From Actinomycetota bacterium (lineage in GTDB: Bacteria > Actinomycetota > Geothermincolia > Geothermincolales > RBG-13-55-18), in the NCBI GenBank assembly GCA_030019255.1, contig JASEFK010000001.1, forward strand, positions 184,367 through 248,366: a stretch of 64,000 bases of DNA, written 5' to 3'. A program made the position numbers and the translations under genes. Shown here piece after piece: positions 1 to 46,842 of the stretch; positions within the stretch are counted from its first letter, which is position 1; every line of letters starts with the position of its first letter. A model generated the notes under the pieces. It worked only from the letters and a program-made list of their open reading frames with translations, did not search any database and was not told where the DNA came from.

Positions 1-123
1 ATCCTCACCTGCGGGGACGAGTCCTACGAGCTCAAGGTGAACCAGCTGCGGAAGATATGAGATCGGGATGAGGGAGAGGGGGCGGCGGGGAGCCGCCCCC
101 TTTAAATTTCAGGAGGAAGAAGG

Positions 124-1281
124 ATGTTGAGGTTCCTGGATGCCGGTGAGTCACATGGATTTGGGATAATTACCATTGTGGAGGGCATGCCCATGGGAAT
201 TCCCGTGAGCCGTGAATTCCTCGAATCCGAACTGGCACGAAGGAGGTTGGGATACGGCAGGGGAGCCCGCATGTCCCTGGAAAAGGACAAGGTGGAGATA
301 CTGAGCGGGGTGAGAGGGGGACGTACCCTGGGAAGCCCGGTGGCCATGCTGGTTAGAAACGCTGAATATAAGAAGTGGATGAAGATAATGTCCCCCGGCG
401 GCGATGTGGAGGTCGAACCCCTCACCAGGCCTCGGCCCGGCCACGCCGATTTGGCGGGAGTGCTCAAGTACGGGACAAGGGATATAAGGGACATACTGGA
501 GCGTTCCTCGGCCCGGGAGACGGTGGGCAGGGTGTGCGCGGGTGCCCTGGCCAAGTCCCTCCTCGCCGGCTTCGACATTCACGTGCATTCCCACATCCTC
601 CAGGTGGGGGAGGTGAGGGTCCCGGACAGGAAGGCCTTGCCGCGACGGGAGGAGATGGCGGGCGCCGACGGCGACCCCCTGCGCTGCCTTGATCCGGAAG
701 CGTCGCGACGTATGCGCGAGGAAGTGGACCGCGCCCGACGGGAGGGCGACACCCTGGGTGGCGTTTTCGAGGTGGTGGCCTACGGGGTTCCAGCCGGCCT
801 GGGGAGCCACGTGCACTGGGACCGGAGGCTGGACGCGCGCCTGGCGGCCGCGGTCATGTCCATCCAGGGCGTAAAAGGAGTGGAGATCGGGGAGGGTTTC
901 CGGCTGGCGGGCCTGCGGGGCTCCAGGGCGGCAGACCCCATCTGTCATTCCCGCAGGAGGGGGTTTTACCGGCCGACCAACCGCGCCGGAGGGCTGGAAG
1001 GGGGGATGACCAACGGTGAGCCGGTGGTGGTCAGGGCGGCAATGAAGCCCATCCCCACCCTGGCCTCCCCCCCAGAGACCGTGGACCTATTGACCAAGGA
1101 GAGGGTGCGGGCGGCCGTAGAGAGGGCCGATGTGTGCGCCGTTCCGGCGGCGGCGGTGATCGCCGAAGCGGCGCTAGCCTTCGTACTCGCCGACGCCCTG
1201 CTGGAGAAACTCGGCGGCGACAGCCTGCAGGAATTGGAGGTCCGTTTCCGGGAACTTGTCAGGCGCCACAGGTCCTTTTAA
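124..1281 (+). CDS. aroC: Chorismate synthase
   Basis: 385-aa ORF. N-terminal MLRFLDAGESHGFG motif and overall similarity to the chorismate synthase family. AGGAGG RBS at 110-118. Confidence 0.9.
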   Translation: MLRFLDAGESHGFGIITIVEGMPMGIPVSREFLESELARRRLGYGRGARMSLEKDKVEILSGVRGGRTLGSPVAMLVRNAEYKKWMKIMSPGGDVEVEPLTRPRPGHADLAGVLKYGTRDIRDILERSSARETVGRVCAGALAKSLLAGFDIHVHSHILQVGEVRVPDRKALPRREEMAGADGDPLRCLDPEASRRMREEVDRARREGDTLGGVFEVVAYGVPAGLGSHVHWDRRLDARLAAAVMSIQGVKGVEIGEGFRLAGLRGSRAADPICHSRRRGFYRPTNRAGGLEGGMTNGEPVVVRAAMKPIPTLASPPETVDLLTKERVRAAVERADVCAVPAAAVIAEAALAFVLADALLEKLGGDSLQELEVRFRELVRRHRSF

Positions 1282-1471
1282 GGGGTAGGCCTTCAACTGT
1301 CCTTCAACTGTTATGGATACTGGTAATCACGGGAAGATGACCAAGGAAATAATGTATTACCGGGGAGCTATCCGCGGAGGGATTGGCTCGCATGACCATG
1401 AACACCTTGCGTAATGGTAAGTGTCCTACGCGGAACGCTCGCGGAAAGGGAAAGGTGGGATGTAAGGAGAG

Positions 1472-1981
1472 GTGAAGAACCTGACCCTCATCGGTTTCAT
1501 GGGAGCGGGGAAAAGCGCGGTGGGAAGCCTCCTGGCCCATAGGCTGAAGATGGGATTCGTGGATCTCGACGAGGCCATCTCCAGGGAAGCGGGCATGAGC
1601 GTGGAGGAGATCTTCGAGCGCGAAGGGGAAGAGGGGTTTCGCGATCGGGAGAGCCGGGCCCTGCGCGAGGAATTGCAGCAGGAGGGGATAGTGCTGGCCT
1701 GCGGCGGGGGCATCGTCGTCCGCCCCGAGAACGTGAGGCTCCTGCGAGATAGATGCACCGTGTTCTACCTGCGAGCGAGCAGGGACAGCATCCTGCGGCG
1801 CGTGGGTGGAGGGGAGGGACGACCCCTCCTGGCGGGTGGGCGAGTGGCGGAGCGGGTGGAGGAGCTCCTCTCCCGGAGGGAGGAGGCCTATCGCCAGGCC
1901 GCCCATTACGTGGTGGACACCGACGGCCGCTCGGTGGAGGAAGTGGTGGAGGAAATAGCGGGGATATGGTTGCGGAACTGA
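1472..1981 (+). CDS. aroK: Shikimate kinase
   Basis: 169 aa. P-loop LIGFMGAGKS and the shikimate kinase fold pattern. GTG start preceded by a TAAGGAGAG RBS. The 3' end overlaps the aroB start. Confidence 0.85.
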   Translation: MKNLTLIGFMGAGKSAVGSLLAHRLKMGFVDLDEAISREAGMSVEEIFEREGEEGFRDRESRALREELQQEGIVLACGGGIVVRPENVRLLRDRCTVFYLRASRDSILRRVGGGEGRPLLAGGRVAERVEELLSRREEAYRQAAHYVVDTDGRSVEEVVEEIAGIWLRN

Positions 1982-3090
1982 TGGTCCGGGCGGGAGGGAA
2001 GGAATATCCCATCTCGGTGGGGCGGGGAATTTACGGACGCGTGCTTCCGGAGGCACTCCGCCGCCTCGCCCCCGCACGGGTGGCGGTAGTAACCCATCCA
2101 ACCCTGCGGGAGGGATACGGCCAGATCCTGGAGGAGGCCATCCAGGCAGGGTTATCCGGAGAGGCACGTGTGGCCTGGTTCACCTTTCCCGAGGGCGAGG
2201 AGAACAAGAACCTCCGCGTGGTGGAGGAGGGATACCGCCACCTCATCCGGGAGGGATTCACCCGGGAGGACCTGGTGGTGGCCTTCGGAGGTGGTGTGGT
2301 GGGTGACCTGGCCGGTTTCCTGTCCGCCACCTACATGCGGGGGGTCCGCTACCTGCAGCTTCCCACCACCCTGATGTCCATGGTGGATTCGAGCATCGGA
2401 GGGAAGACGGGGGTGGACCTCCTAGAGGGGAAGAACGCCGTGGGTTGTTTCCATCAGCCCGAGGCGGTGATAGCCGACGTCTCGGTGCTGGAGACCCTTC
2501 CGGAGAGGGAGTTGTTGAGCGGGCTGGCCGAGGTGGCCAAGTACGGTTTCCTCTACGACCGGGAGATCCTCCAGGAGATGGAGGGCTGGCCGGAGGGGAG
2601 GCCACCGCAGGGATACGATTTCACCTCCCTGGTGCGCCGCTGTGCGGAGCACAAGGTGAAGGCGGTGGAGGCGGACGAGAGGGACCTGAAGGGAGTACGC
2701 GCCTTCCTCAACTACGGGCATACCTTCGGCCACGCCCTGGAGGCGGCTGCCGGATACCGGCTGCTGCGCCACGGCGAGGCGGTGGCCCTGGGGATGATCA
2801 TGGCCTCCCGGCTGGCGGAGCGGAGCGGCCTGTCCCGAACCCCCCTGGAGGAGGGACACCTCCGCGTGCTCCTCCCCCTCCTGCAGTATATTCCTTCCGC
2901 CCTGGAGGTCTCCGCCCAGGAGGTCCTGGGTTTCATGGAGGCGGACAAGAAGCGGGGGCGGGCGATCCGTTTCGTGCTTCTCAGGGATTGGCAGTCCCCG
3001 GTTCTGGTGGACTCACCCCCGGTGGAGCTGGTGAGGGAGGCGGTGGGAAAGACCCTGGAGGACTTGCGCGGATGGATGGGATACCCCTAA
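1966..3090 (+). CDS. aroB: 3-dehydroquinate synthase
   Basis: The internal ATG at 1966 gives about 374 aa (MVAELMV...). DHQ synthase motifs are present (GGGVVGDLAGF, Gly-rich NAD site, HTFGHALE). The upstream part of the track ORF (1753-1965) is a low-complexity read-through. Confidence 0.85.
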   Translation: MVAELMVRAGGKEYPISVGRGIYGRVLPEALRRLAPARVAVVTHPTLREGYGQILEEAIQAGLSGEARVAWFTFPEGEENKNLRVVEEGYRHLIREGFTREDLVVAFGGGVVGDLAGFLSATYMRGVRYLQLPTTLMSMVDSSIGGKTGVDLLEGKNAVGCFHQPEAVIADVSVLETLPERELLSGLAEVAKYGFLYDREILQEMEGWPEGRPPQGYDFTSLVRRCAEHKVKAVEADERDLKGVRAFLNYGHTFGHALEAAAGYRLLRHGEAVALGMIMASRLAERSGLSRTPLEEGHLRVLLPLLQYIPSALEVSAQEVLGFMEADKKRGRAIRFVLLRDWQSPVLVDSPPVELVREAVGKTLEDLRGWMGYP

Positions 3091-3170
3091 CCGTTGCTCG
3101 TGGGCGTGGCCGAAGACGGGTGAGGGGAGGGAATATCATTTAATGTATCCTGAAAGGAGGTAGGTCGAGC

Positions 3171-3605
3171 ATGCCTCTTATCGCCGTGGTCAACGGCCCC
3201 AACCTCAACCTGCTCGGGGAACGGGACCCGGAGATATACGGGACGATCGGCTGGGAGGAAGTCAGGGACGCACTCCGGGAAAGGGCGGCCGAGATGGGGG
3301 TGGAGCTGGAGTTTTTCCAGAGCAACCACGAAGGGGCCATCATCGATTACCTGCAGGGCCTGCGGGGTCGCGCCGCCGGCCTGGTAATCAACCCCGGGGC
3401 CCTGACCCATTACGGATACTCTCTGCGGGACGCCCTGGCGGACCTGGACATCCCAGCCATCGAGGTGCACCTAAGCAACATCTTCGCCCGGGAGGAATGG
3501 AGGGCACGTTCGGTGGTCTCCCCGGTGGTCAGAGGAGTGATAAGCGGCCTGGGGACGGAGGGATACCTGAGCGCCGTGAGAATTATGGCGGAGTGGGTGC
3601 GATAA
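3171..3605 (+). CDS. aroQ: 3-dehydroquinate dehydratase, type II
   Basis: 144 aa. MPLIAVVNGPNLNLLGERDPEIYG is the canonical type II DHQase N-terminus. HLSNIFAREEWR motif. Confidence 0.9.
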   Translation: MPLIAVVNGPNLNLLGERDPEIYGTIGWEEVRDALRERAAEMGVELEFFQSNHEGAIIDYLQGLRGRAAGLVINPGALTHYGYSLRDALADLDIPAIEVHLSNIFAREEWRARSVVSPVVRGVISGLGTEGYLSAVRIMAEWVR

Positions 3606-3711
3606 AAGCGTCGGGTTGCGGGGCTTACCCGGATGACGAGTTTTCTCACACCTTTCGGTATATGGCAAAGAAATGACAGGCGTACCGGGGGTTGTAACAG
3701 GATCGTAACAT

Positions 3712-3730
3712 GGTTAATCGATAATTAACC
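3712..3730. promoter_or_regulatory. Perfect 7-5-7 inverted repeat GGTTAAT-CGATA-ATTAACC in the AT-rich region upstream of the pilin genes. Candidate operator.
   Basis: Read directly from the sequence. Flanked by a GTAACA-N5-GTAACA direct repeat at 3693-3709. Sits in a 240-bp AT-rich intergenic region between aroQ and the first pilin gene. Confidence 0.4.
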
Positions 3731-3848
3731 CCGGGTTACCGTCGGGTGTGTTAAGGTCGGAAAGGAAAGCATCGATTATGTAAATAAGAAATGGATAAAC
3801 ACGAGTGAGTCGCAATGAATTGTTGATCGCCCGTGGCGGGGTGAGAAA

Positions 3849-4394
3849 ATGAGGCTTCTGCAAAACATCCTCGGAGATGATTACCCGGAAGACCAGGCGG
3901 GGTTTACCCTCATAGAGTTATCCATCATCGTGGTTATCCTGGGCATCGTGCTCACCCTGGCGGTCGTCAATTACGCCAATACCAGCAGGTCCATGGCCTT
4001 GAAGGGGGCCCAGAGGCAGGTGGAAGCGGCCCTCACCCGGGCCATGAACGCGGCACGCCAGGAAAATGTCGCTTACCGGTTGATCTTTTATCCTCAGTCG
4101 GACGCTGCCCACCCGAACTCCTACGAGTTCCTTCACCGGGTGGAAAGTGCCGGCAACTGGAACCTGGAGCCGGTGGACAGGTCGGTGAGTGGGGAAGAGG
4201 TCACGGAGGACGCGGGCCATTACTACATAGAGGTTTCCAACGGTGTGAAAATCTTGAACGATACGGCAACGGTCATCGATTTCGTCCCCCGGGGAACCAC
4301 CCAGACCGTTACTCCCGCCACCATCACCCTGGGGCTGGGTGGATCCACCATCAGCGTGGTCCTTGATGCGCAAGGAAGAATAAATCCGCAATAA
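3849..4394 (+). CDS. Type IV pilin / pseudopilin (prepilin-type N-terminal cleavage/methylation domain)
   Basis: 181 aa. N-terminal G-FTLIELSIIVVILGIV is the class III signal (G|FTLIE) followed by a hydrophobic helix. GC is lower than in the flanking genes. Confidence 0.6.
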   Translation: MRLLQNILGDDYPEDQAGFTLIELSIIVVILGIVLTLAVVNYANTSRSMALKGAQRQVEAALTRAMNAARQENVAYRLIFYPQSDAAHPNSYEFLHRVESAGNWNLEPVDRSVSGEEVTEDAGHYYIEVSNGVKILNDTATVIDFVPRGTTQTVTPATITLGLGGSTISVVLDAQGRINPQ

Positions 4395-4398
4395 TGTT

Positions 4399-6792
4399 TT
4401 GCAGGCTTGGAGAGGTGGAGAGTGCGAGATGTGGCTGCGAAGGAAATTGGATAACCAAGAGGGTTTTTCACTGGCCGAGATGCTGGTGGCCGGCCTGATA
4501 ATAGTGGTGGGACTCATCCCCATCATCCGCATGTTCGACGCTTCCTTTTCGGGAATGAGGGCCTTCGAGAAGATGCAGAAGAGCGTGAGCTGCGCCCAGG
4601 CCGCCCTGGAAAAAATTCGCTCCATGCCTTTTTATGAACCCCATAAGGATACCGATGTGAACTTGAATTTCGACATCGACGATCATTTCTGGGGCAGTAG
4701 AAGTCCCATAACCAGCAATCCGGCGGATGGGGAAGGAAAACCGGATTGGAGCGCCGTTCCCGAGGTCACCTACTTCAACTACGGCGGTTTCCCGGGATAC
4801 GAACCCTACCGGGTGACGGTCCAGCTCTCCTATCTCGAGGACGACACGGGCGTGGCGGTGATGAAAAGCGACTGGGGGCCTAAAACGGTGGGGAAAGACC
4901 GGCCCACTAACAGCGACAACCAGGTCATCCACCTACTGTTGGTTAAAGTGAACGTTTACTGGCAGTCGGGGGATGGAGAGGACAGTTACGTGCTGCAGAG
5001 CATCATCACCGACACCGAGGCCATCTACAACATCGGTATATCCAGGATCGTCGTCACCGGGCCGGACTCCATAAGGGATGCTACCAAGCCCAACGCCGCC
5101 GCTCACTGGTCCGATCCCAATGTGAACGTGAACGTGAGGATTGAGGGCTGGGGCTTTGATGACCTGAACGACGCCAACGGAAGAGCCCAGGCCTGGCTGG
5201 TCAGGGACAAGTACGAGGATATCCCCATCACCATCACCTCGTGGACACCCACGGTGCTCGAGGGCTGGACGACCCTTTATACGGGACATAACGAAACGAA
5301 CAATCCGTGGAGGCCCAAGGCGGCCATCGGCTTCTGGTCGGTGAAGGTACGCCAGGAGGGGGTAATCTCCGCCTACCTGTATGAAGGATTCATAGTCCAA
5401 TACCCCAAGCCGGTTATCGACGATTTCGGAAATGATCCCGATTACAGCAAGACCGGCCCCAATTATTGGAATGCGGCCGTGCTGAAGATTAGGGGTGGGC
5501 CTTTCTGCTTCCCGGTGGAATACCCGGCGGTGAGGCTGATCAAGGTGGACAATGAGGGCAACGTCGAACACCAGATTAATGGAACGGTCACCGCGGTAAG
5601 CGCGCCGGATGGGTCCTACGGTTATGCGTCCAGCCCCGCTTGCGAGATCACGGCCACCTTCGACTTTACCGGCGCTCCGCCCGGTGAATATCACATGCAG
5701 GTGGTGAACACCAAGGAACCCACCATGATCGGACACGTGGCCTCGGATCTCTCCAGCGCGGTATACGTGATCGAGGAGGCCATACCCGAGGTATACGACG
5801 TTTACGTCTACGGTACCGGTTCCCACCAGGCGTATAACAACATGGGGAATCCCTGGAGGCTGGTCTTCGAAGGGAAATATTTCAACATGCAGGGGACTCC
5901 CCCGGTGGAGGTATACCTGTGCAGCGACGTGGTCAACGGACAACCTGCCGGGAATTATGTTCAGGGAACCGTTGTGCAGGTCATGAACTATACCTACGTG
6001 ATCGCCGACTTCAACCTCTCCGCCCTGCCGGAGGGCTGGTACAAAGGTTATGTTAAGAACCTGAACAACAACCAGTCCGGATGGACCGTAGGTTCGCCCT
6101 TCCAGGTGGTGGCCTTCAATGCCAGTATAGGCGGGTTTGTGCCCGACAACGGCTACAATTTCTACGAGAACTACTACGACATACCCTGCAAGATCACCGG
6201 GAACGGCTTTTCCGCCACCTCGGGGGTTTCCATCACCGACGGTTCGGTGGAATACAGCCTGGCGGGCGAGTACACCGTCACCAACGATAACGAGATAAGG
6301 GTGAACCTCAACCTCATCGGTTGCGACAACACCCATAACTGGAAGGTGAGAGTATACTTCGGAAGTTATTATATCGAAAAGGAGTTCGACGTCATACTGG
6401 GGCCTGCCAAGATACTCCCCCCCAGCGACACCAAGTATGCCTTAGCCATTTACGCCGAGAGGTGGTATTCAGGTAGCGAATGGCATTATGAGACCACTTC
6501 AACCAGGGCATATGCCTGGAGGAGTTATTGGTATGGGGCCGGTTACGCGACCTTCCGGGTGAGGGGGATGGGATTCCCCATGAATGGGCAAACAAACTTA
6601 AGAGTATGGGGTAGTGGTCTGGACGTAAATGGCAATTTTAATTGCACTTACGATCGGACCAACAAGATTGTACAGATTCAGTCCTCTAGATGGACCATGC
6701 CGGGCGCTACAGGTCTTTACAACATAGAGGTCTATAGGGTTGGCGATACTATTAAGGATACCTACACGGGAAGATGGGAGCTGAGGAGTTAA
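4399..6792 (+). CDS. Large pilin-like protein (prepilin-type N-terminus, ~750-aa aromatic/Asn-rich C-terminal region)
   Basis: 797 aa. N-terminal ...NQEG|FSLAEMLVAGLIIVVGLIPII prepilin motif, possibly starting at ATG 4429. The rest is W/Y/N/G-rich and predicted beta-rich. Lower GC than the flanking genes. Confidence 0.55.
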   Translation: MQAWRGGECEMWLRRKLDNQEGFSLAEMLVAGLIIVVGLIPIIRMFDASFSGMRAFEKMQKSVSCAQAALEKIRSMPFYEPHKDTDVNLNFDIDDHFWGSRSPITSNPADGEGKPDWSAVPEVTYFNYGGFPGYEPYRVTVQLSYLEDDTGVAVMKSDWGPKTVGKDRPTNSDNQVIHLLLVKVNVYWQSGDGEDSYVLQSIITDTEAIYNIGISRIVVTGPDSIRDATKPNAAAHWSDPNVNVNVRIEGWGFDDLNDANGRAQAWLVRDKYEDIPITITSWTPTVLEGWTTLYTGHNETNNPWRPKAAIGFWSVKVRQEGVISAYLYEGFIVQYPKPVIDDFGNDPDYSKTGPNYWNAAVLKIRGGPFCFPVEYPAVRLIKVDNEGNVEHQINGTVTAVSAPDGSYGYASSPACEITATFDFTGAPPGEYHMQVVNTKEPTMIGHVASDLSSAVYVIEEAIPEVYDVYVYGTGSHQAYNNMGNPWRLVFEGKYFNMQGTPPVEVYLCSDVVNGQPAGNYVQGTVVQVMNYTYVIADFNLSALPEGWYKGYVKNLNNNQSGWTVGSPFQVVAFNASIGGFVPDNGYNFYENYYDIPCKITGNGFSATSGVSITDGSVEYSLAGEYTVTNDNEIRVNLNLIGCDNTHNWKVRVYFGSYYIEKEFDVILGPAKILPPSDTKYALAIYAERWYSGSEWHYETTSTRAYAWRSYWYGAGYATFRVRGMGFPMNGQTNLRVWGSGLDVNGNFNCTYDRTNKIVQIQSSRWTMPGATGLYNIEVYRVGDTIKDTYTGRWELRS

Positions 6793-7397
6793 TGGCGGTG
6801 GCAAAAAAAACGCGCAACTTCCGGGAGAGGATGCGGAAAGAACCCGTTCTCCGAATAGTGCCTGGAGAGGCGGGATTTACCCTCGCTGAACTTATGGTGG
6901 TTATCGGCATCCTGATCATCTTCCTCATCGGGGTGGCGGGAATGTTGGAATCCGGCGCCGACAGCTCAACCACCCAGTATGTTCTGGCCCGGATAGAAGA
7001 GGATGCAGGAAAAGTACTGGACACCATGACCCGCCAGATCAGGGTGGCCACGACCATCAATCCCTTCAGCACCAACAGCACCCTTATATTCTCGGGCGAC
7101 CTGGATGGGAGCGGAACTGTTCAGGCCATGGTCTTTACCGTTTCTGGCGGGAAGCTCATGCGGGGCTCCGACCCGAATAACCTCCAAGCATGGGTGGATG
7201 GGGTGGAGAGCATAACCTTTACCTATCATCGATTCAATCCTGTCACCAAGGCGATGGAGGAGATCACCCCGGGAACAGCTGGTTGGAACACCCTCGTGGA
7301 CCGCGTGGATATCGCCATCCGATTCTCTCGCCGGGCGGGAAAGATAAACCTGCAGAGGGACTATACCGGTAGCGTGACCCTGCGCAACAATTTGTGA
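6792..7397 (+). CDS. Pseudopilin / minor pilin (prepilin-type N-terminus)
   Basis: G|FTLAELMVVIGILIIFLIGVAG motif after a basic leader. ATG 6792 overlaps the stop of the previous gene (TAATG). The alternative start is 6774. Confidence 0.55.
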   Translation: MAVAKKTRNFRERMRKEPVLRIVPGEAGFTLAELMVVIGILIIFLIGVAGMLESGADSSTTQYVLARIEEDAGKVLDTMTRQIRVATTINPFSTNSTLIFSGDLDGSGTVQAMVFTVSGGKLMRGSDPNNLQAWVDGVESITFTYHRFNPVTKAMEEITPGTAGWNTLVDRVDIAIRFSRRAGKINLQRDYTGSVTLRNNL

Positions 7398-7413
7398 CGG
7401 TTTCTTTAAGGAT

Positions 7414-8943
7414 GTGGGTGTGATGAACGGCATAAAAAAGAGGGCGCGAAAGGTGATGCGCAGGTTGGGAAAGAAGGCATGGGCCACCTTCCTCGGGCCC
7501 AAGGATGAGGGTTTCGCCATCGTCATCGTCCTGGTGGCCCTGACCATGCTCTCCATCCTGGGCGCCGCCAGCCTCCTGCTCATGGTCTCCGCCCTGCAGG
7601 GCGCGGTCAACGCCAGACCGGAGGATAAAGCCTTCCAAGTTGCTGAATCCGCTCTATATCTCGCTCACGCCAAAATAGTCAACAACGAGATAACCGGGGG
7701 GACCGTTTACACTTATTCGGGCGAGCTTCTCGGTGGGAGTTACCAGCTGGAGATCCAGCCGGTTGCGGGCACCTACAACTACATCGTAACCGCTACGGGG
7801 TCTTACGTAGAGAGGGGCACCACCTACCGACGCAGGATAAGGGAGGAAGTCATCTACAGTGGCCTGCAGGCCTTCGACGTGATGAAGAACTATCTCCTGT
7901 TCGCGGGAAACGATGTAAACATAAGAGCTGACGAAACCATCAACGCGGGCGCGCCCATCACCATCAATGCAGGTGGGGGCGGCTCCCTGGGGGGCGGCAT
8001 TCGAGCCGAACGGGACGTGAATATCACCGTGACTCCCGTTGTCAGCCTGGGCGACGGGTTGACCATAAACGGCGACATCGAGGCCAAGAGAAAGCTTTAC
8101 GTGCATGTGGGACCGCGCTGGTTTGGATCGGTCAACGCCAGGCTTTACGGGAACATCAAGACCGGGGATAAATCCACCGGACAAAAGGGTACCGTGGAGC
8201 TGTGGGCGGACGGCATAGCCCAGCTCTTCCCGCCCGCCTTTTCCTTGGCTTACATATATGCGGCCACCACTGGTTCCATAAATTGGAGTCTTTATGCCGG
8301 GACCCTTATAAAAACGGTGGACAAACTCTTCGGGTGGGACCTGGGGGCCATCTATACCCCGCCGGGGGCGCCGATCCAACAGGCCGCTTGCGATAAAGTA
8401 TATGTGCCGGAGCCCAACTTCGAGTACTACCGCGCTCTAGCCCAGCAGCAGGGAAATTTCTTCATCGGCGACAAGACCTTCAGCGGCAACCTAAGTACCT
8501 ACGGTACGTCCTCGGTGACCGTCATCTATTGCACCGGGAATCTCACTCTCAACGGCGTGGCCTGGGACGTGCCGAATATGAAGGGTATATTCGTCTGCGA
8601 GGGAAGCTTCACTGCCAACAACCGTCTACAATTCAATTCCAACTCCAAGTTTCAGGTCATCAGCAAAGGGGACATAACCTTCAACAACGACTGGTCTTTC
8701 CTTGGATGGGGTTCCACAAACGAGTATTTCTTCTGGGCGGGAAAGGATATAAACGTGGACCTGGGAATGTTCAACAATCAATATTGCCAGATGACCGCCC
8801 TGCACGATATCAATATCTTCAGCTCGGAAAACCTTTTTGCCACCTGCACCATCAATTACCGCGCCCCGGACGTGGATGTGGCCGGTTTCCCCATCGAGCT
8901 CACGGTTATAAACTGGAGGGAGATCAGCCTGGACCAGGAATGA
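7414..8943 (+). CDS. PilX-N-like minor pilin / pilus assembly protein
   Basis: 509 aa. Basic leader, then EGFAIVIVLVALTMLSILGAASLLLMVSALQGA, resembling the PilX N-terminal domain family. Gly/Asn-rich C-terminus. Confidence 0.5.
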   Translation: MGVMNGIKKRARKVMRRLGKKAWATFLGPKDEGFAIVIVLVALTMLSILGAASLLLMVSALQGAVNARPEDKAFQVAESALYLAHAKIVNNEITGGTVYTYSGELLGGSYQLEIQPVAGTYNYIVTATGSYVERGTTYRRRIREEVIYSGLQAFDVMKNYLLFAGNDVNIRADETINAGAPITINAGGGGSLGGGIRAERDVNITVTPVVSLGDGLTINGDIEAKRKLYVHVGPRWFGSVNARLYGNIKTGDKSTGQKGTVELWADGIAQLFPPAFSLAYIYAATTGSINWSLYAGTLIKTVDKLFGWDLGAIYTPPGAPIQQAACDKVYVPEPNFEYYRALAQQQGNFFIGDKTFSGNLSTYGTSSVTVIYCTGNLTLNGVAWDVPNMKGIFVCEGSFTANNRLQFNSNSKFQVISKGDITFNNDWSFLGWGSTNEYFFWAGKDINVDLGMFNNQYCQMTALHDINIFSSENLFATCTINYRAPDVDVAGFPIELTVINWREISLDQE

Positions 8944-9266
8944 ACCCCGGCGCAACCCTTTCAGAGGTCCCAGCGATCGGGAACCAAGAATAGGAAAGGG
9001 TTGTGAAAAGCGAGCATCGTTTAAATGGCCTGTTCCCACGCCATTTCTTATTTAGGGTTCGCAGCTTGATGAATGGAAGGTATGGCCATTCAGTCTCCCC
9101 GAATCGATTCCCGCTCCCTTGGAACTTTTCCATCTGGAACGACGAGAGATACTGATCCGGGGCCGGGTGTTGCCATATTCCTGGAGGGGTTCGGGCATCT
9201 TGTTTTGCGCAGTCCCGTTCGCTTTAATGGGGCTGGTCGAAAGAACCTTACGAGGACAGGTGGGAA

Positions 9267-10454
9267 TTGCAAGACTCGGAATATTCCAAGCACAGGAGTC
9301 GTTTCCGTGAGGCGATGCGGGAGCGGGAGCTGGACGGGCTACTGGTCACGAGCCTTTCGGACGTGCGTTACCTGTGCGGGTTCAGCGGCTCCAGCGGCCT
9401 GGTGCTCCTTCTCCCCCGCTCGGGATGGTTCCTCACCGACTTCCGCTACCGGGAGCAGTCCCGGGAGGAGGTGGCCGGCCTGCGTACCCTCATCTGCGAG
9501 GAGGATTTCGGCAAGGGATTGCGGGAGATACTGACCCGCTCGAGGGGAGGAACGGCGCCGGGTTCCGCGCGGACGCGGGACCGGGACGTTGCGGGCTGTG
9601 CCGCAGGAGGAACCTCTCCCGGCGCCGCGGGCAGCGCGTCACCACGACCCCTGAGGATCGGGTACGACCCCCGGTCCCTTACCTGCGCGGAGCTGGCCCT
9701 GTACCGGCGGAGGCTGCGAGGGCTGGCCTCCTTGGTCCCACTCAAGGCGGACATGCAGTCGGTGCGGGCCCGCAAGAGCCCGGCGGAAGTGAGGGCTATG
9801 AAAAAGGGAATTCGGGTAGCCGAGGCGGCCTTCCGGGAGGCGCTCCGGGGGCTGGGAGAAAGACCCACCGAGCGGGAGCTGGCCCTGGAACTGGACTTCG
9901 CCGCCCGGCGCCGGGGAGCGGAGGCCGCCGCCTTCGAGACTATAGTGGCCGGTGGGGCGAGGGGAGCCCTGGTGCACGCCCGGCCCTCGGGCTCAAAGCT
10001 CACCGGGGCCGTGGTGGTGGACTGGGGCGTCGTGTTCGAGGGTTACTGCACGGATTGCACGCGCACCGTGGCCCTGGGGCGCGTCCCCGCGGAGATCAGG
10101 AAGGTACACCGCCTGGTCCTGGAGGCCCAGGAGAGGGCCCTGGAGAGGATAAGGCCCGGGGTAAGGGCGAGGGAGGTGGACCGGGTTGCCCGGGAGGTTC
10201 TGGAAAAAGCTGGCTACGGCAAGGCTTTCGGTCATGGCCTGGGGCACGGGGTAGGCCTGGAGGTGCACGAGATGCCGCACCTTTCCCCGCGGAGCCGCGA
10301 TGTCCTGGAGGAGGGCATGGTCTTCACCGTGGAGCCGGGAGTGTATCTTCCCGGGGTGGGAGGTGTGCGGGTGGAGGACATGGTCCTGGTCACCTCCTCG
10401 AGAGCGGAGGTCCTGACCTCCCTTCCCCGTTCCTTGGACCCCTCTGAGTACTGA
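9267..10454 (+). CDS. Xaa-Pro aminopeptidase/dipeptidase (M24B family)
   Basis: 395 aa. The C-terminal half has the M24 pita-bread motifs ([30 protein letters not shown]). The position between aroQ and efp is conserved in Actinobacteria/Firmicutes. Contains a low-complexity insertion (aa ~90-140). Confidence 0.8.
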
Positions 10455-12034: not shown

Positions 12035-12237
12035 AGCCGCGGAACGACCTCGTTCTCCGGCGTTGTCACGTTGCATGGCTGGGGAGGCGACGAAGCGGAC
12101 CGCGTGGTCCGGGATCGGGCCTCATTGGCTTGTGGCGCCAAACGCCAGGTAGGGTATCCTTCCGGTGGCCTCTACGGGAGCCGGTGGAGTGCCCGCCGAG
12201 TTGTTCGCTTCCCGCGGCGGTGATATGATGAATGAAA

Positions 12238-12272
12238 CCTTTAAATCCAGTCCCGTGAGGCTGGCAAGGGAT
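12238..12272 (+). promoter_or_regulatory. PyrR-binding loop (pyr operon attenuation RNA element)
   Basis: AAUCCAGUCCCGUGAGGCUGGCAAGG matches the conserved PyrR binding-loop consensus (ARUCCNGNGAGGCU...GCAAGG). It lies just upstream of a terminator hairpin and of pyrR. Confidence 0.7.
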
Positions 12273-12287
12273 AGCTGATGATGAAAG

Positions 12288-12326
12288 GCAGCCCTCCTGC
12301 GCCGGCCGCAGGGGGGCTTTTTTGGA
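12288..12326 (+). terminator. Intrinsic terminator (pyr leader attenuator)
   Basis: GC-rich hairpin GCCCTCCTGCGCCGGCCGCAGGGGGGC followed by TTTTTT. Confidence 0.75.
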
Positions 12327-12341: not shown

Positions 12342-13026
<685 letters not shown>

Positions 13027-44877: not shown

Positions 44878-45060
44878 GAAGGTGAGATTGACGCTCGGCG
44901 AACGAGGGTTATAATTTATCCAGCATTTCATGCCGCCGCGGAAGCATGAGGGCGGCGCAGGGAAATGGCGATGAAGCTCGCCTTTTGCCCCCTTAAAGGG
45001 GCTGATAGCTTCTACCCAAGAGGTAGGAGCTCTTCTTTTTTAGGGAAGGTGAGAAGAGGG

Positions 45061-46842
45061 ATGAGTTCGTACAAGGAGATCCGGGATTCGATCCTCGCCA
45101 TTATCGATGATGTGAAATTTGGCGCGGAATTTGCTGCTTCCCGCACTCTTAGCGAGGGATTGGAAGGGGTAAGGCGGAAGCTGAAGGCGGAGAATTTTCA
45201 CGTGGTGGTCATGGGCCAGTTCAAACGAGGGAAGACCACCTTCATCAACGGCCTTTTGGGAGCGGAAATCCTGCCGAGCTCGGTGGTGCCCCTCACGTCC
45301 ATTAACACCATTCTTCGTTACGGGGAGAACATCAGGGCCACCGTTCATTATCTCGACGGCCGCAGCGAGGATATACCGGTGACCGGATTGCCCGCTTTGG
45401 TGACCGAAAGGGGAAACCCCGAGAACCGTTTAGGGGTGAAATACGTGGAGGTGTTCTACCCTTCGATGTTTTTGAAGGACGGGGTATGTCTGGTGGACAC
45501 TCCGGGAACCGGATCCACCTATCTCCACAACGACGAGACCGCATATTCTTTCCTCCAGCACGCGGACGCGGTCATCTTCATGCTTTCGGCCGACCCTCCC
45601 GTGAGCCGATCGGAGCTGGATTTTCTTCACCGCATAAGGAGCAACGTCCGGAAGGTCTTCTTCGTTCAGAACAAGGTCGATTACCTGGAGCGGGAGGATT
45701 TGGAGGAATCCCTGGCCTTCAACCGGCAGGTCATCTCGGAAGCCGTGGGTCTTGACGGCCTGGAGATCCATCCCCTGTCCGCGAAAATGGCCCTCAAGGC
45801 GGCCGTGACGGGTGACGGCTCGCTTTTGGAACGGAGCGGCCTGCCGGATTTTCTGGCCGCGCTCGAGGATTTTTTGATGAAAGAAAAGGGTAGGCTGCTG
45901 CTGGAATCCAGCGCCAGGATGCTCCAGAGGCTCCTGGACGACGAATACGCGTCCTTGGAGCTGGAAATGGCGCTTATCGGTCATCCCAGAGAGGAACTCC
46001 TGAGGAAGGTGGCCTCCTTCCGCGAGCAAATGGAATTGATACGGAGGGAGCGGGAGGAAGTCCGTTTCCTCATTCGGGGTGATCACGAACGCCTGGTGAA
46101 GGAGATGCTGGACGAGGAGATCGAGCGTTTCAAGAAAGAGGAGACGGCGCCCCTGCTACAGCGCTTCGACGCCTTTTTCGAGGAGAACGCTGGGCTTTCC
46201 GGTTCCTCCCTTAACCAGGCCCTGGCTGATTTCATCCGCGAGGAGATCAGGGAGACCTTCCTCTCCTGGAGGCAAATACAGGAGGAGCGGCTATCCGATG
46301 CCTTCCGTGCCATGGCGAGGATGTACATGGACAGGGCCAACGCCATCGCTAACCGCATTCTGGAAATAGCTGGAGACCTCTTCGGCCTGTTGCTTCCCCG
46401 CCTGGAGACGGAAATAGTTCTGAGTGATGAAGGGGAATTCTGGTTCAAAATGGGAGATTCCCTCACCGACCTGGAGATCATCTTCGGGGCCATCTCCAGG
46501 ATGTTGCCAAGAGGCCTTTCCCGCCGCCTGATAAGGAGGAAACAGAGGGCGGAATTGCTGACCCTTTTCGATCGCCACTGCGGGAGGGTCCGTTATGATT
46601 TTTTCCTGCGCCTCCAGAAAAGCGTCAACGCACTTTCCTGCCGGGTGGATGAGGTTATCCAGGGAACGCTGGAGGCCATCGAGATTGGGATAGAGAAGGC
46701 CTTGCGGGAGATGGAAGAGGGGGCTGGAAGGATCCTTGAAGCGCAGGAAGAGCTGCGGGATAGACAGGGGGTGCTGGCGGCGGCCCGGGAGAGGCTGAAA
46801 AAGGTCATGAAGGACGTTGCGGAAGAGCCCCGCGCCCTTTAG
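45061..46842 (+). CDS. Dynamin-family GTPase (bacterial dynamin-like protein)
   Basis: About 593 aa from ATG 45061. G1 GQFKRGKTT. G3 DTPG. G4 NKVD. Long helical stalk/paddle region. Noticeably lower GC than the surrounding core. Confidence 0.75.
   Translation: MSSYKEIRDSILAIIDDVKFGAEFAASRTLSEGLEGVRRKLKAENFHVVVMGQFKRGKTTFINGLLGAEILPSSVVPLTSINTILRYGENIRATVHYLDGRSEDIPVTGLPALVTERGNPENRLGVKYVEVFYPSMFLKDGVCLVDTPGTGSTYLHNDETAYSFLQHADAVIFMLSADPPVSRSELDFLHRIRSNVRKVFFVQNKVDYLEREDLEESLAFNRQVISEAVGLDGLEIHPLSAKMALKAAVTGDGSLLERSGLPDFLAALEDFLMKEKGRLLLESSARMLQRLLDDEYASLELEMALIGHPREELLRKVASFREQMELIRREREEVRFLIRGDHERLVKEMLDEEIERFKKEETAPLLQRFDAFFEENAGLSGSSLNQALADFIREEIRETFLSWRQIQEERLSDAFRAMARMYMDRANAIANRILEIAGDLFGLLLPRLETEIVLSDEGEFWFKMGDSLTDLEIIFGAISRMLPRGLSRRLIRRKQRAELLTLFDRHCGRVRYDFFLRLQKSVNALSCRVDEVIQGTLEAIEIGIEKALREMEEGAGRILEAQEELRDRQGVLAAARERLKKVMKDVAEEPRAL

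Follow-up and report, generated by a model that had tools for sequence, protein, structure and literature searches.

A candidate modular type IV minor pilin with five predicted immunoglobulin-like domains in an uncultured lineage of Actinomycetota

The window analysed here is a stretch of 64,000 nucleotides (positions 184,367 to 248,366, forward strand) of contig JASEFK010000001.1, from the Actinomycetota bacterium assembly GCA_030019255.1 (Geothermincolales); coordinates given below are positions in this window. Close to its start lie four consecutive prepilin-like genes (3849-8943), arranged in the order of the GspH-I-J-K and FimU-PilV-W-X sets. The second of these appears to encode a giant modular minor pilin of a type IV pilus (T4P), made up of a leader peptide, a pilin module of about 200 residues and five predicted immunoglobulin (Ig)-like domains, the last of which is basic.

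The open reading frame (ORF) at 4399..6792 on the plus strand has 797 codons, beginning with TTG. The sequence GGAGAGGTGGAG is found at 4409-4420 and an ATG follows 8 nt later, at 4429; the N-termini of most orthologues line up with the Met of this codon in an alignment of 30 sequences, the window protein and 29 orthologues. Because of these two observations translation most likely starts at ATG 4429 rather than at TTG 4399. The 797-aa ORF described in an earlier, sequence-only reading of this DNA therefore exists, with a probable product of 787 amino acids (aa; 4429..6792, stop codon included). The 29 full-length orthologues recovered by protein homologue search (777-835 aa; 97-100% query coverage; 38-90% identity) come from independent metagenome assemblies, the named ones being Actinobacteria/Actinomycetota metagenome-assembled genomes (MAGs), Geothermincolales-like and uncultured. 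There are 36 profile matches to the family at E<=1e-30, and 13 loci among GTDB species representatives, several of them in 'Candidatus Geothermincolales'. The closest orthologue, 89% identical, is that of Actinomycetota MAG-41 (JACIXB010000006.1). In this single pair the ratio of nonsynonymous to synonymous substitution rates (dN/dS; Nei-Gojobori) comes to 0.116 for the full length, with values of 0.07-0.16 when six segments are taken separately.

Long spurious ORFs arise in high-GC DNA, and an antisense ORF of 467 aa (4933..6336, minus strand) lies wholly inside the giant gene; it is itself most likely a GC-driven spurious ORF, since the sense frame is under strong purifying selection. The same origin for the giant gene, as a chance ORF of GC-rich DNA or as two genes fused by a frameshift (the outcome that the sequence-only reading had named as fatal to its proposal), is refuted by the 29 collinear full-length orthologues from independent assemblies, a 46%-identical paralogue, the dN/dS of 0.116 and an AlphaFold2 confidence that is high along the entire chain.

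The leader peptide M1-G12 (4429..4464, plus strand) is the 12-residue basic/polar sequence MWLRRKLDNQEG, which ends in an invariant Gly-1 and is followed by FSLAEMLVAGLIIVVGLIPII, with Phe+1, Glu+5 and 21 hydrophobic residues. G12 (Gly-1) and E17 (Glu+5) are invariant among the 30 sequences and F13 (Phe+1) is conserved in at least 90% of them. The junction of MWLRRKLDNQEG with FSLAE is a canonical class III prepilin signal, so that the prepilin N-terminus quoted in the sequence-only reading holds, and the analysis of leader and cleavage site which it called for reveals a processable-looking signal peptide. A loose GFxxxE pattern run over all six frames of the window matched in the giant gene and the next gene only.

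The pilin module (residues 13-200; 4465..5028, plus strand) was delimited from an AlphaFold2 model, from invariant columns of the alignment and from sub-threshold PilV, ComGE and GspI matches. The model, built on the 30-sequence alignment, has a mean predicted local distance difference test score (pLDDT) of 86.9 and a predicted template modelling score (pTM) of 0.43. It shows a hydrophobic alpha1N (FSLAEMLVAGLIIVVGLIPII), an alpha1 helix at residues 15-64 and sheet strands at 128-136, 169-180 and 183-194, that is, the lollipop fold in which alpha1 is packed on an antiparallel sheet. The part that is not pilin is thus about 587 residues long (201-787) and not the roughly 750 previously estimated, since the first 200 or so residues belong to the pilin module. 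A profile search of Protein Data Bank (PDB) sequences with the family, and with the pilin module alone, yielded nothing meaningful, its best result being a 40-residue match to a Cd-ATPase domain (E=0.006), with pilin alpha1 helices appearing only at E>0.2. The long alpha-beta loop of the module carries an invariant D82-I-D84-D85-x-F-W88-G89 motif (4672-4695), with further invariant Pro, Asn and Trp residues nearby. This motif, which could be a metal (Ca2+) site or an interface for a J- or K-like partner, does not occur in the other giant pilins with this kind of pilin module.

After residue 200 the model consists of five C-terminal beta-sandwiches joined by short conserved linkers; the combination of low pTM and high pLDDT is typical of beads on a string. 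D1 (residues 201-326; 5029..5406) is a beta-sandwich of the model and contains the stretch NVNVNVRIEGWGFDD quoted in the sequence-only reading as well as NVNVNVRIEGWGFDDLNDANG (residues 231-251; 5119-5181). D2 (residues 327-451; 5407..5781) is recognised in the model and by a hidden Markov model (HMM) match to TIG repeats, D3 (residues 452-564; 5782..6120) in the model, by HMM and by hhalign to D2. D4 (residues 565-657; 6121..6399), again found by model and HMM, is marked by near-invariant F-Y/W-E-N-Y-Y-D and L-N-L-I-x-C motifs. The distal D5 (residues 658-787; 6400..6789) is an enlarged Ig/E-set-like sandwich with an isoelectric point (pI) of 9.4. All five are encoded on the plus strand. D2 and D3 are homologous (hhalign probability 97%, E=6e-11) and are the sole pair of domains whose relationship to each other is detectable.

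The affinity of these domains was sought by an exhaustive profile search of 1.84 billion representatives, which gave 1,412 matches at E<=1e-3. Among them are giant proteins with 5-11 stretches matching the family profile, which Pfam describes as TIG arrays (E down to 8e-73). The HMMs of D1-D4 match the repeats of these proteins at their period of about 94 aa, those of D2-D4 in register and that of D1 by weak partial matches only (best independent E about 0.09). Positions 24-92 of the D4 HMM match every such repeat of one giant protein (P0063), including a stretch that Pfam itself calls TIG. The pilin module and D5 gave no match to the 94-aa repeats. Foldseek searches of the PDB returned mostly tandem Ig arrays, among them titin I65-I70, the plexin A1/A4 ectodomains, contactins, the Ig-like part of PrgB and the Sap S-layer protein, with likenesses also to the IPT domains of Met, EBF and NF-kB. 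IPT/TIG homology is thus indicated by both profile and fold, and the C-terminal part is predicted to be five IPT/TIG-like Ig domains. No lectin, vWA, propeller or solenoid effector was found in the fold searches.

Signature databases give little hint of this. The Pfam TIG model (PF01833) has no match in the window protein at E<=1 and none in the 30 family members at E<=0.1, and Pfam/NCBIfam scans of the protein and of all 30 members yielded weak N_methyl, PilV and ComGE matches, with nothing in the C-terminal 587 residues. The C-terminal domains which the sequence-only reading could not recognise are accordingly invisible to Pfam, but they are recognisable by profile and fold as IPT/TIG-like Ig domains. 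Its view of the extra part as beta-rich agrees with the all-beta model; its suggestion of lectin modules does not, and the structure prediction and Foldseek search that it recommended bore out a region organised into domains, which proved to resemble tandem Ig arrays rather than lectins.

Compared with 11 housekeeping genes of the window, residues 201-787 contain more Asn (8.0 vs 1.5%), more Tyr (7.5 vs 2.4%), more Trp (3.2 vs 0.9%), more Thr (7.2 vs 3.6%) and more Ile. The richness in W, Y, N and T reported earlier is thus confirmed, but not that in Gly (9.7 vs 10.9%). Most of the invariant aromatic residues fall in predicted beta-strands, from which we infer that they probably form the cores of the beta-sandwiches and not an obvious sugar-binding platform.

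The number of domains is five in all 30 members, with mean pairwise identities of 45-54% per domain. This constancy, and the fact that only D2 and D3 are detectably related, exclude a repetitive stalk of variable length that arose by recent duplication. Highly conserved peptides include GF[IV]V[EQ]YP[KQR]P at the D1-D2 junction and F[YW]ENYYD in D4, and the conserved junction peptides suggest that the geometry between domains may be fixed. The whole window protein is acidic (pI 4.9), the mean net charges in the family being -13.5 for the pilin head, -4.4 for D1, -5.4 for D2, -2.1 for D3 and -6.5 for D4. D5 is net positive in 28/30 members (mean +4.5; +2 to +10 over about 130 residues). Three of its basic residues, R743, K746 and R782, never vary, and K669, R725 and R770 are kept in at least 80% of members. 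D5 also has the lowest dN/dS of all domains (0.067), and diversifying selection on the distal domain, in the style of a host-interacting adhesin, was rejected for the one close pair compared.

The remaining genes of the operon, all on the plus strand, provide the context for this protein. Gene 1 (3849..4394) encodes a GspH/FimU-class minor pilin of 181 aa with the signal GFTLIE, Glu5 being present. It was identified with Pfam (N_methyl E=6e-6; GspH E=7e-4) and with TIGR01708 gspH (E=3e-11, under the curated cut-off), and its position is kept in three related contigs (L001, L003 and L005). Gene 3 (6831..7397) stands in the GspJ/PilW position and specifies a minor pilin of about 188 aa with the signal GFTLAE, again with Glu5 (N_methyl E=2.7e-4). 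Its mechanical ORF runs from 6774 and overlaps the end of gene 2; NCBIfam prepilin matches are weak, and the same slot in the three contigs is occupied by orthologues of 171-207 aa. Gene 4 (7414..8943) encodes a GspK/PilX-class minor pilin of 509 aa (PilX_N E=5e-5; GspK E=0.026) in which the leader ends in KDEG and the mature protein begins FAIVI, without Glu5. Glu5 is likewise absent from five of five orthologues and paralogues inspected, which show FAMAV, FAMVM, FALVM and FAIAI variants. A missing Glu5 is the hallmark of the K subunit (PMC9934059). The order of the four genes is conserved in L001, L003 and L005. The description of the second product as a giant minor pilin is therefore upheld, in that it is far longer than ordinary pilins and its operon context is that of a minor pilin of a tip or priming complex.

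Two further observations concern the size and number of these genes. The product of gene 4 would be a second oversized tip subunit. It accompanies the giant pilin in every case, its length in L001, L003 and L005 being 460-521 aa, and its C-terminal part of about 420 residues has no Pfam/NCBIfam match and contains Gly/Asn-rich stretches such as NAGAPITINAGGGGSLGGGIRAERDVNITV. In Actinomycetota MAG GCA_040961035.1 (L003, 4297-9259) an extra paralogous set lies directly upstream of the orthologous operon. Its giant pilin has 803 aa and shares 46% identity with the window protein; a GspH-like protein of 174 aa and a PilX_N protein of 460 aa complete the set.

In the window the operon is flanked by aroC-aroK-aroB-aroQ upstream and by pepP-efp-asp23-nusB-pyrR-pyrB downstream. 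The synteny in related contigs is T2SSE-T2SSF-HTH-PilM-(PilN-like)-PilO-aroCKBQ-[H, giant, J, K]-pepP-efp. In contig L001, T2SSE, T2SSF (PilC), PilM, a gene the size of PilN, and PilO precede the orthologue by 4-10 kb, and the T2SSE ATPase that adjoins pilC in a related contig is 355 aa long, the size of PilT. The window begins at aroC, and the T4P machine genes would fall just outside it. Since pilC, pilM, pilO and T2SSE precede the aro genes in the related contigs, the operon is, by gene order, assigned to a T4a-like pilus machine. The linkage of pil genes to aroK-aroB resembles the pilMNOPQ-aroK-aroB arrangement of Proteobacteria and Thermus; aroC-aroK-aroB-aroQ here separates the minor-pilin operon from the T4P machine genes (window 1-3605; L001 1-9200).

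The GC content of the pilin operon (4001-10000) is 55-60%, compared with 62-69% in the flanking housekeeping genes. Because the locus is syntenic across the family, this more likely reflects a composition rich in Asn, Tyr, Ile and Thr than a recent horizontal transfer. Cyclic di-GMP riboswitches are known for clostridial pilin genes; a search of 3550-3900 gave no riboswitch at E<=1 other than a chance small RNA match, and in 3400-9400 predicted promoters and terminators were no more numerous than in shuffled sequence. Elsewhere in the window a PyrR-binding attenuator (RF00515; 55.3 bits; 12234-12326) lies upstream of pyrR (12484-13026) and pyrB, as in ordinary regulation of a pyrimidine operon. 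A fluoride riboswitch match at 44958-45021 (34.8 bits against a gathering threshold of 34; E=7e-6) sits at the 5' end of the ORF 44965-46842 for a dynamin-family GTPase (Dynamin_N E=4e-26), an unusual gene in that place; perhaps the match is only a marginal one, or perhaps the true start under its control is situated farther along.

The class of the giant pilin was examined with the I-class models TIGR02523 (PilV), TIGR01707 (GspI) and NF041013 (ComGE). The pilin modules of 22 members matched PilV in 14 cases (best 2e-8), ComGE in 12, XpsI in seven and GspI in four, while J-class models were matched by one member and H-class models by two; the I class is thus the best, but every one of these matches, of whichever class, scores below its cut-off and covers no more than roughly the first 60 residues, mainly alpha1. 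These N-terminal matches, together with gene order, are the grounds for the I-class call. By position, the giant gene stands between an H-class prepilin and the J- and K-class ones. The comparison with GspK, PilY1 or ComGG-like tip proteins proposed in the sequence-only reading was not borne out, the pilin module scoring best with PilV, GspI and ComGE and the K-like protein being the product of another gene, the second one after it. At about 120-140 aa, I subunits are the smallest of the pilins.

Some 38 of the best 150 profile matches are proteins of 392-1362 aa that share with the giant pilin family only the pilin module of about 190 residues, and 34 of them carry a strict GFxxxE signal. Their C-termini differ, with InlB-type B repeats in one (P0085), an NHL/Vgb-lyase-like beta-propeller in another (P0113) and unassigned regions in others. 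Like the giant gene of the window, the gene for P0113 (L018, 6001-9681) follows aroK-aroB-aroQ and then a short gene (about 194 aa); no J- or K-like gene is visible up to the end of its contig. These fusions suggest that cargo may be swapped at an I-like minor-pilin slot. As related lineages join a similar pilin module to unlike C-termini, the C-terminal part would seem to be an exchangeable effector rather than a core part of the machine.

The interpretation we prefer, with a probability of about 0.6, is that the protein is a modular type IV minor pilin displayed at the pilus tip, in which an acidic Ig stalk presents the basic domain to a putative anionic ligand. Judging from the motif and from what is known of the family, prepilin peptidase would cleave after Gly12, and alpha1N would hold the protein in the membrane. 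The giant pilin would act as the I-class member of an H-I-J-K-like set, as gene order, the weak HMM class and the lack of Glu5 in gene 4 indicate; together with the J-like and K-like subunits it would prime pilus assembly and then stay at the tip. The five IPT/TIG-like domains that follow the pilin module may form a rod of roughly 20 nm, if about 4 nm is assumed for each Ig domain. The acidic D1-D4 would hold the basic D5 away from the filament, where D5 might bind its ligand on a surface, a polymer or a partner cell; this step is proposed because of the conserved charge pattern and of the purifying selection, which is strongest on D5. Pilus dynamics could then convert binding into attachment or pulling. 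Adhesin and DNA receptor, the functions suggested in the sequence-only reading, stay candidate roles, and the only new hint of function is the conserved basic distal domain.

Several results weigh against this interpretation. No PilV, GspI or N_methyl HMM attains its curated cut-off for the window protein. With PF07963 (N_methyl) it stays below threshold (E=0.1; score 12.7 bits, cut-off 21.2), and 13/30 members of the family reach E<=0.1 with that model, 9.5e-5 being the best value. TIGR02532 is not among the NCBIfam matches of the giant protein, and the window module reaches only E=1e-3 with PilV (19.5 bits against a cut-off of 52.2) and E=6e-3 with ComGE. The window contains no prepilin peptidase, major pilin or assembly ATPase, and a motif search for peptidase A24 (GxGD[VI]K type) found nothing when the window and 18 related loci were translated in all six frames; the peptidase is presumably encoded at another place in the genome. 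With a pTM of 0.43 the rod-like arrangement of the domains is tentative. Finally, purifying selection on D5 would fit a conserved ligand but would also fit an internal protein-protein interface.

A rival view is that the protein serves structure or assembly only and recognises no external ligand, its Ig array binding the K- or J-like partners, the shaft or the wall, and so stabilising or gauging the tip complex or helping its passage through the envelope. We regard this as unlikely. In its favour, each of the five domains is conserved, their number does not change and purifying selection acts on all of them, more as in a machine part than in the stalk of a variable adhesin; linkers such as GF[IV]V[EQ]YP[KQR]P rank with the most conserved segments; the K-like partner, likewise large, is encoded alongside in every case; and assembly in model systems requires HIJK sets (PMC9934059). 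Yet related lineages attach quite different cargos to a similar pilin module (InlB-type B repeats, an NHL beta-propeller or unassigned regions), and some genomes have two paralogous sets. Still less probable, at a few chances in a hundred, is that no filament is involved, the class III signal being a mere anchor or secretion signal of a cell-surface Ig-repeat protein (as in the substrate-binding proteins of the archaeal 'bindosome') or the operon encoding a short pseudopilus like that of type II secretion systems (T2SS). Such a role could draw on the Pfam N_methyl score, on the lack of a major pilin and a peptidase in the window and on the tandem IPT arrays that are common in surface proteins unconnected with pili, but it sits poorly with an invariant Glu5, a gene placed between H-like and J/K-like prepilins, and tight linkage to pilC, pilM/pilO, a PilN-sized gene and a T2SSE ATPase. 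A classical T2SS is unlikely in particular, as no secretin gene was found in the flanks examined and the host lineage is generally regarded as monoderm, in which case the absence of a secretin is expected.

A receptor for natural transformation, in which the basic D5 would bind extracellular DNA at the tip or side of the pilus and retraction would bring it in, a role comparable to that of ComP, ComZ, FimT or the minor pilins of Com pili, is a rather unlikely alternative to the anionic-ligand tip pilin preferred here. It would account for a D5 that is net positive in 28/30 members, with R743, K746 and R782 invariant, in a protein otherwise acidic, for the weak ComGE matches of 12/22 members, and for the constraint on D5 (dN/dS 0.067), which a ligand of unvarying chemistry such as DNA would lead one to expect. 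IPT domains also occur in the DNA-binding Rel/EBF factors, where they mostly serve dimerisation. On the other side, +2 to +10 is a modest net charge for a domain of about 130 residues and the whole protein is acidic (pI 4.9); profile and fold searches revealed no known DNA-binding pilin motif or fold, no comEA, comEC or dprA was seen beside the locus, and the AlphaFold2 model lacks a ComZ-type solenoid inserted in the pilin sheet. The wider proposal that the I-class minor pilin is a tip cargo slot in deep-branching uncultured Actinomycetota and in many metagenomic lineages, loaded here with an acidic spacer of fixed length and a conserved basic domain that captures extracellular DNA or another polyanion, is similarly doubtful. 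If true, it would describe a new type of pilus-tip receptor, with no likeness in sequence or fold to ComP, ComZ or FimT.

A modular pilin has been defined as a pilin module joined to at least one C-terminal module that is not specific to T4P biology, and such pilins carry effector modules at T4P tips (PMC8179133). The window protein has this architecture, with five Ig-like domains after residue 200 in the AlphaFold2 model whose fold also occurs in surface proteins other than pili. Many modular pilins are predicted to escape detection because their modules have no database signatures, and Dataset S1 of Raynaud et al. lists the combination IPR012902-IPR002909 (pilin + IPT/TIG) in five proteins (PMC8179133). 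Two minor pilins of Streptococcus sanguinis are the nearest counterparts, being, like the window protein, minor pilins of a monoderm T4P with a predicted tip location. PilB (Raynaud et al. 2021), a pilin with a vWA module, shares the N-terminal pilin and the C-terminal module attached through a short linker, while PilC (Shahin et al. 2023, PMC9934059), with pilin, Ig-like and ConA-like lectin parts, is a close parallel in having an Ig domain between pilin and effector. The window protein differs in carrying five Ig-like modules that Pfam does not see and that end in no lectin or vWA effector which could be recognised, and in coming from an uncultured environmental lineage of actinobacteria. 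Moreover, its carrier is probably I-class, whereas the I-like PilA of S. sanguinis is small and non-modular. The HIJK complex is located at the tip and is capped by a K subunit without Glu5 (PMC9934059). With GspI, PilV and ComGE the window protein has in common the second slot of the H-I-J-K order, the best sub-threshold HMM matches, a small three-stranded head and a K partner without Glu5; it departs from them in being 787 aa long, a 200-residue head with a 587-residue extension, and in HMM scores far under the curated cut-off (19.5 against 52.2 bits).

Other large tip proteins are less similar. CofB of enterotoxigenic Escherichia coli and TcpB of Vibrio cholerae are minor pilins of about 500 aa with a C-terminal beta-repeat and beta-sandwich which are located at the tip, start assembly and mediate binding (PMC8179133, PMC5207764). 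They are T4b homotrimers with two extra domains, whereas the window protein belongs to a T4a-like H-I-J-K context, and neither gave a sequence match or a top-ranking fold match in the profile and fold searches. ComZ of Thermus thermophilus is likewise a large minor pilin, for competence, encoded among minor pilin genes, with a proposed tip location and a beta-rich addition (PMC8179133). That addition is a beta-solenoid inserted in the pilin sheet, whereas the Ig domains of the window protein are appended after the last pilin strand; no homology was detected and fold searches gave no solenoid matches. PilY1/PilC of diderm T4aP plays a comparable part as a large tip-associated adhesin presented by HIJK minor pilins (PMC8179133), but PilY1 is a non-pilin with a C-terminal beta-propeller (IPR008707), and neither PilY1 nor a propeller domain was found in the window protein by Pfam/NCBIfam or fold searches. 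With the IPT stalks of Bacteroides SGBP-B (e.g. BACOVA_02650) and of plexin and Met the likeness is at the level of fold only (9-17% identity); these are lipoproteins or receptors and not pilins, and D5 is unlike their binding domains. The protein is, in sum, a known design with new traits: a probable I-class carrier, five non-identical Ig domains, no classical effector and a home in an uncultured actinobacterial lineage.

Minor pilins at the tip set what T4P bind, and nearly all characterised examples come from a few pathogens. In these uncultured hot-spring or subsurface actinobacteria the smallest subunit of a conserved priming complex would have turned into the largest, through the addition of five different Ig domains that are predicted to form a rod. 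The failure of signature databases to detect any of them supports the view that modular pilins are under-counted (PMC8179133). If D5 binds DNA or a defined polymer, the family would represent a new type of tip receptor; if it does not, it would be an ordinary addition to the modular pilins. The charge dipole and the pattern of cargo in the I slot are the only leads that could raise the interest of the family.

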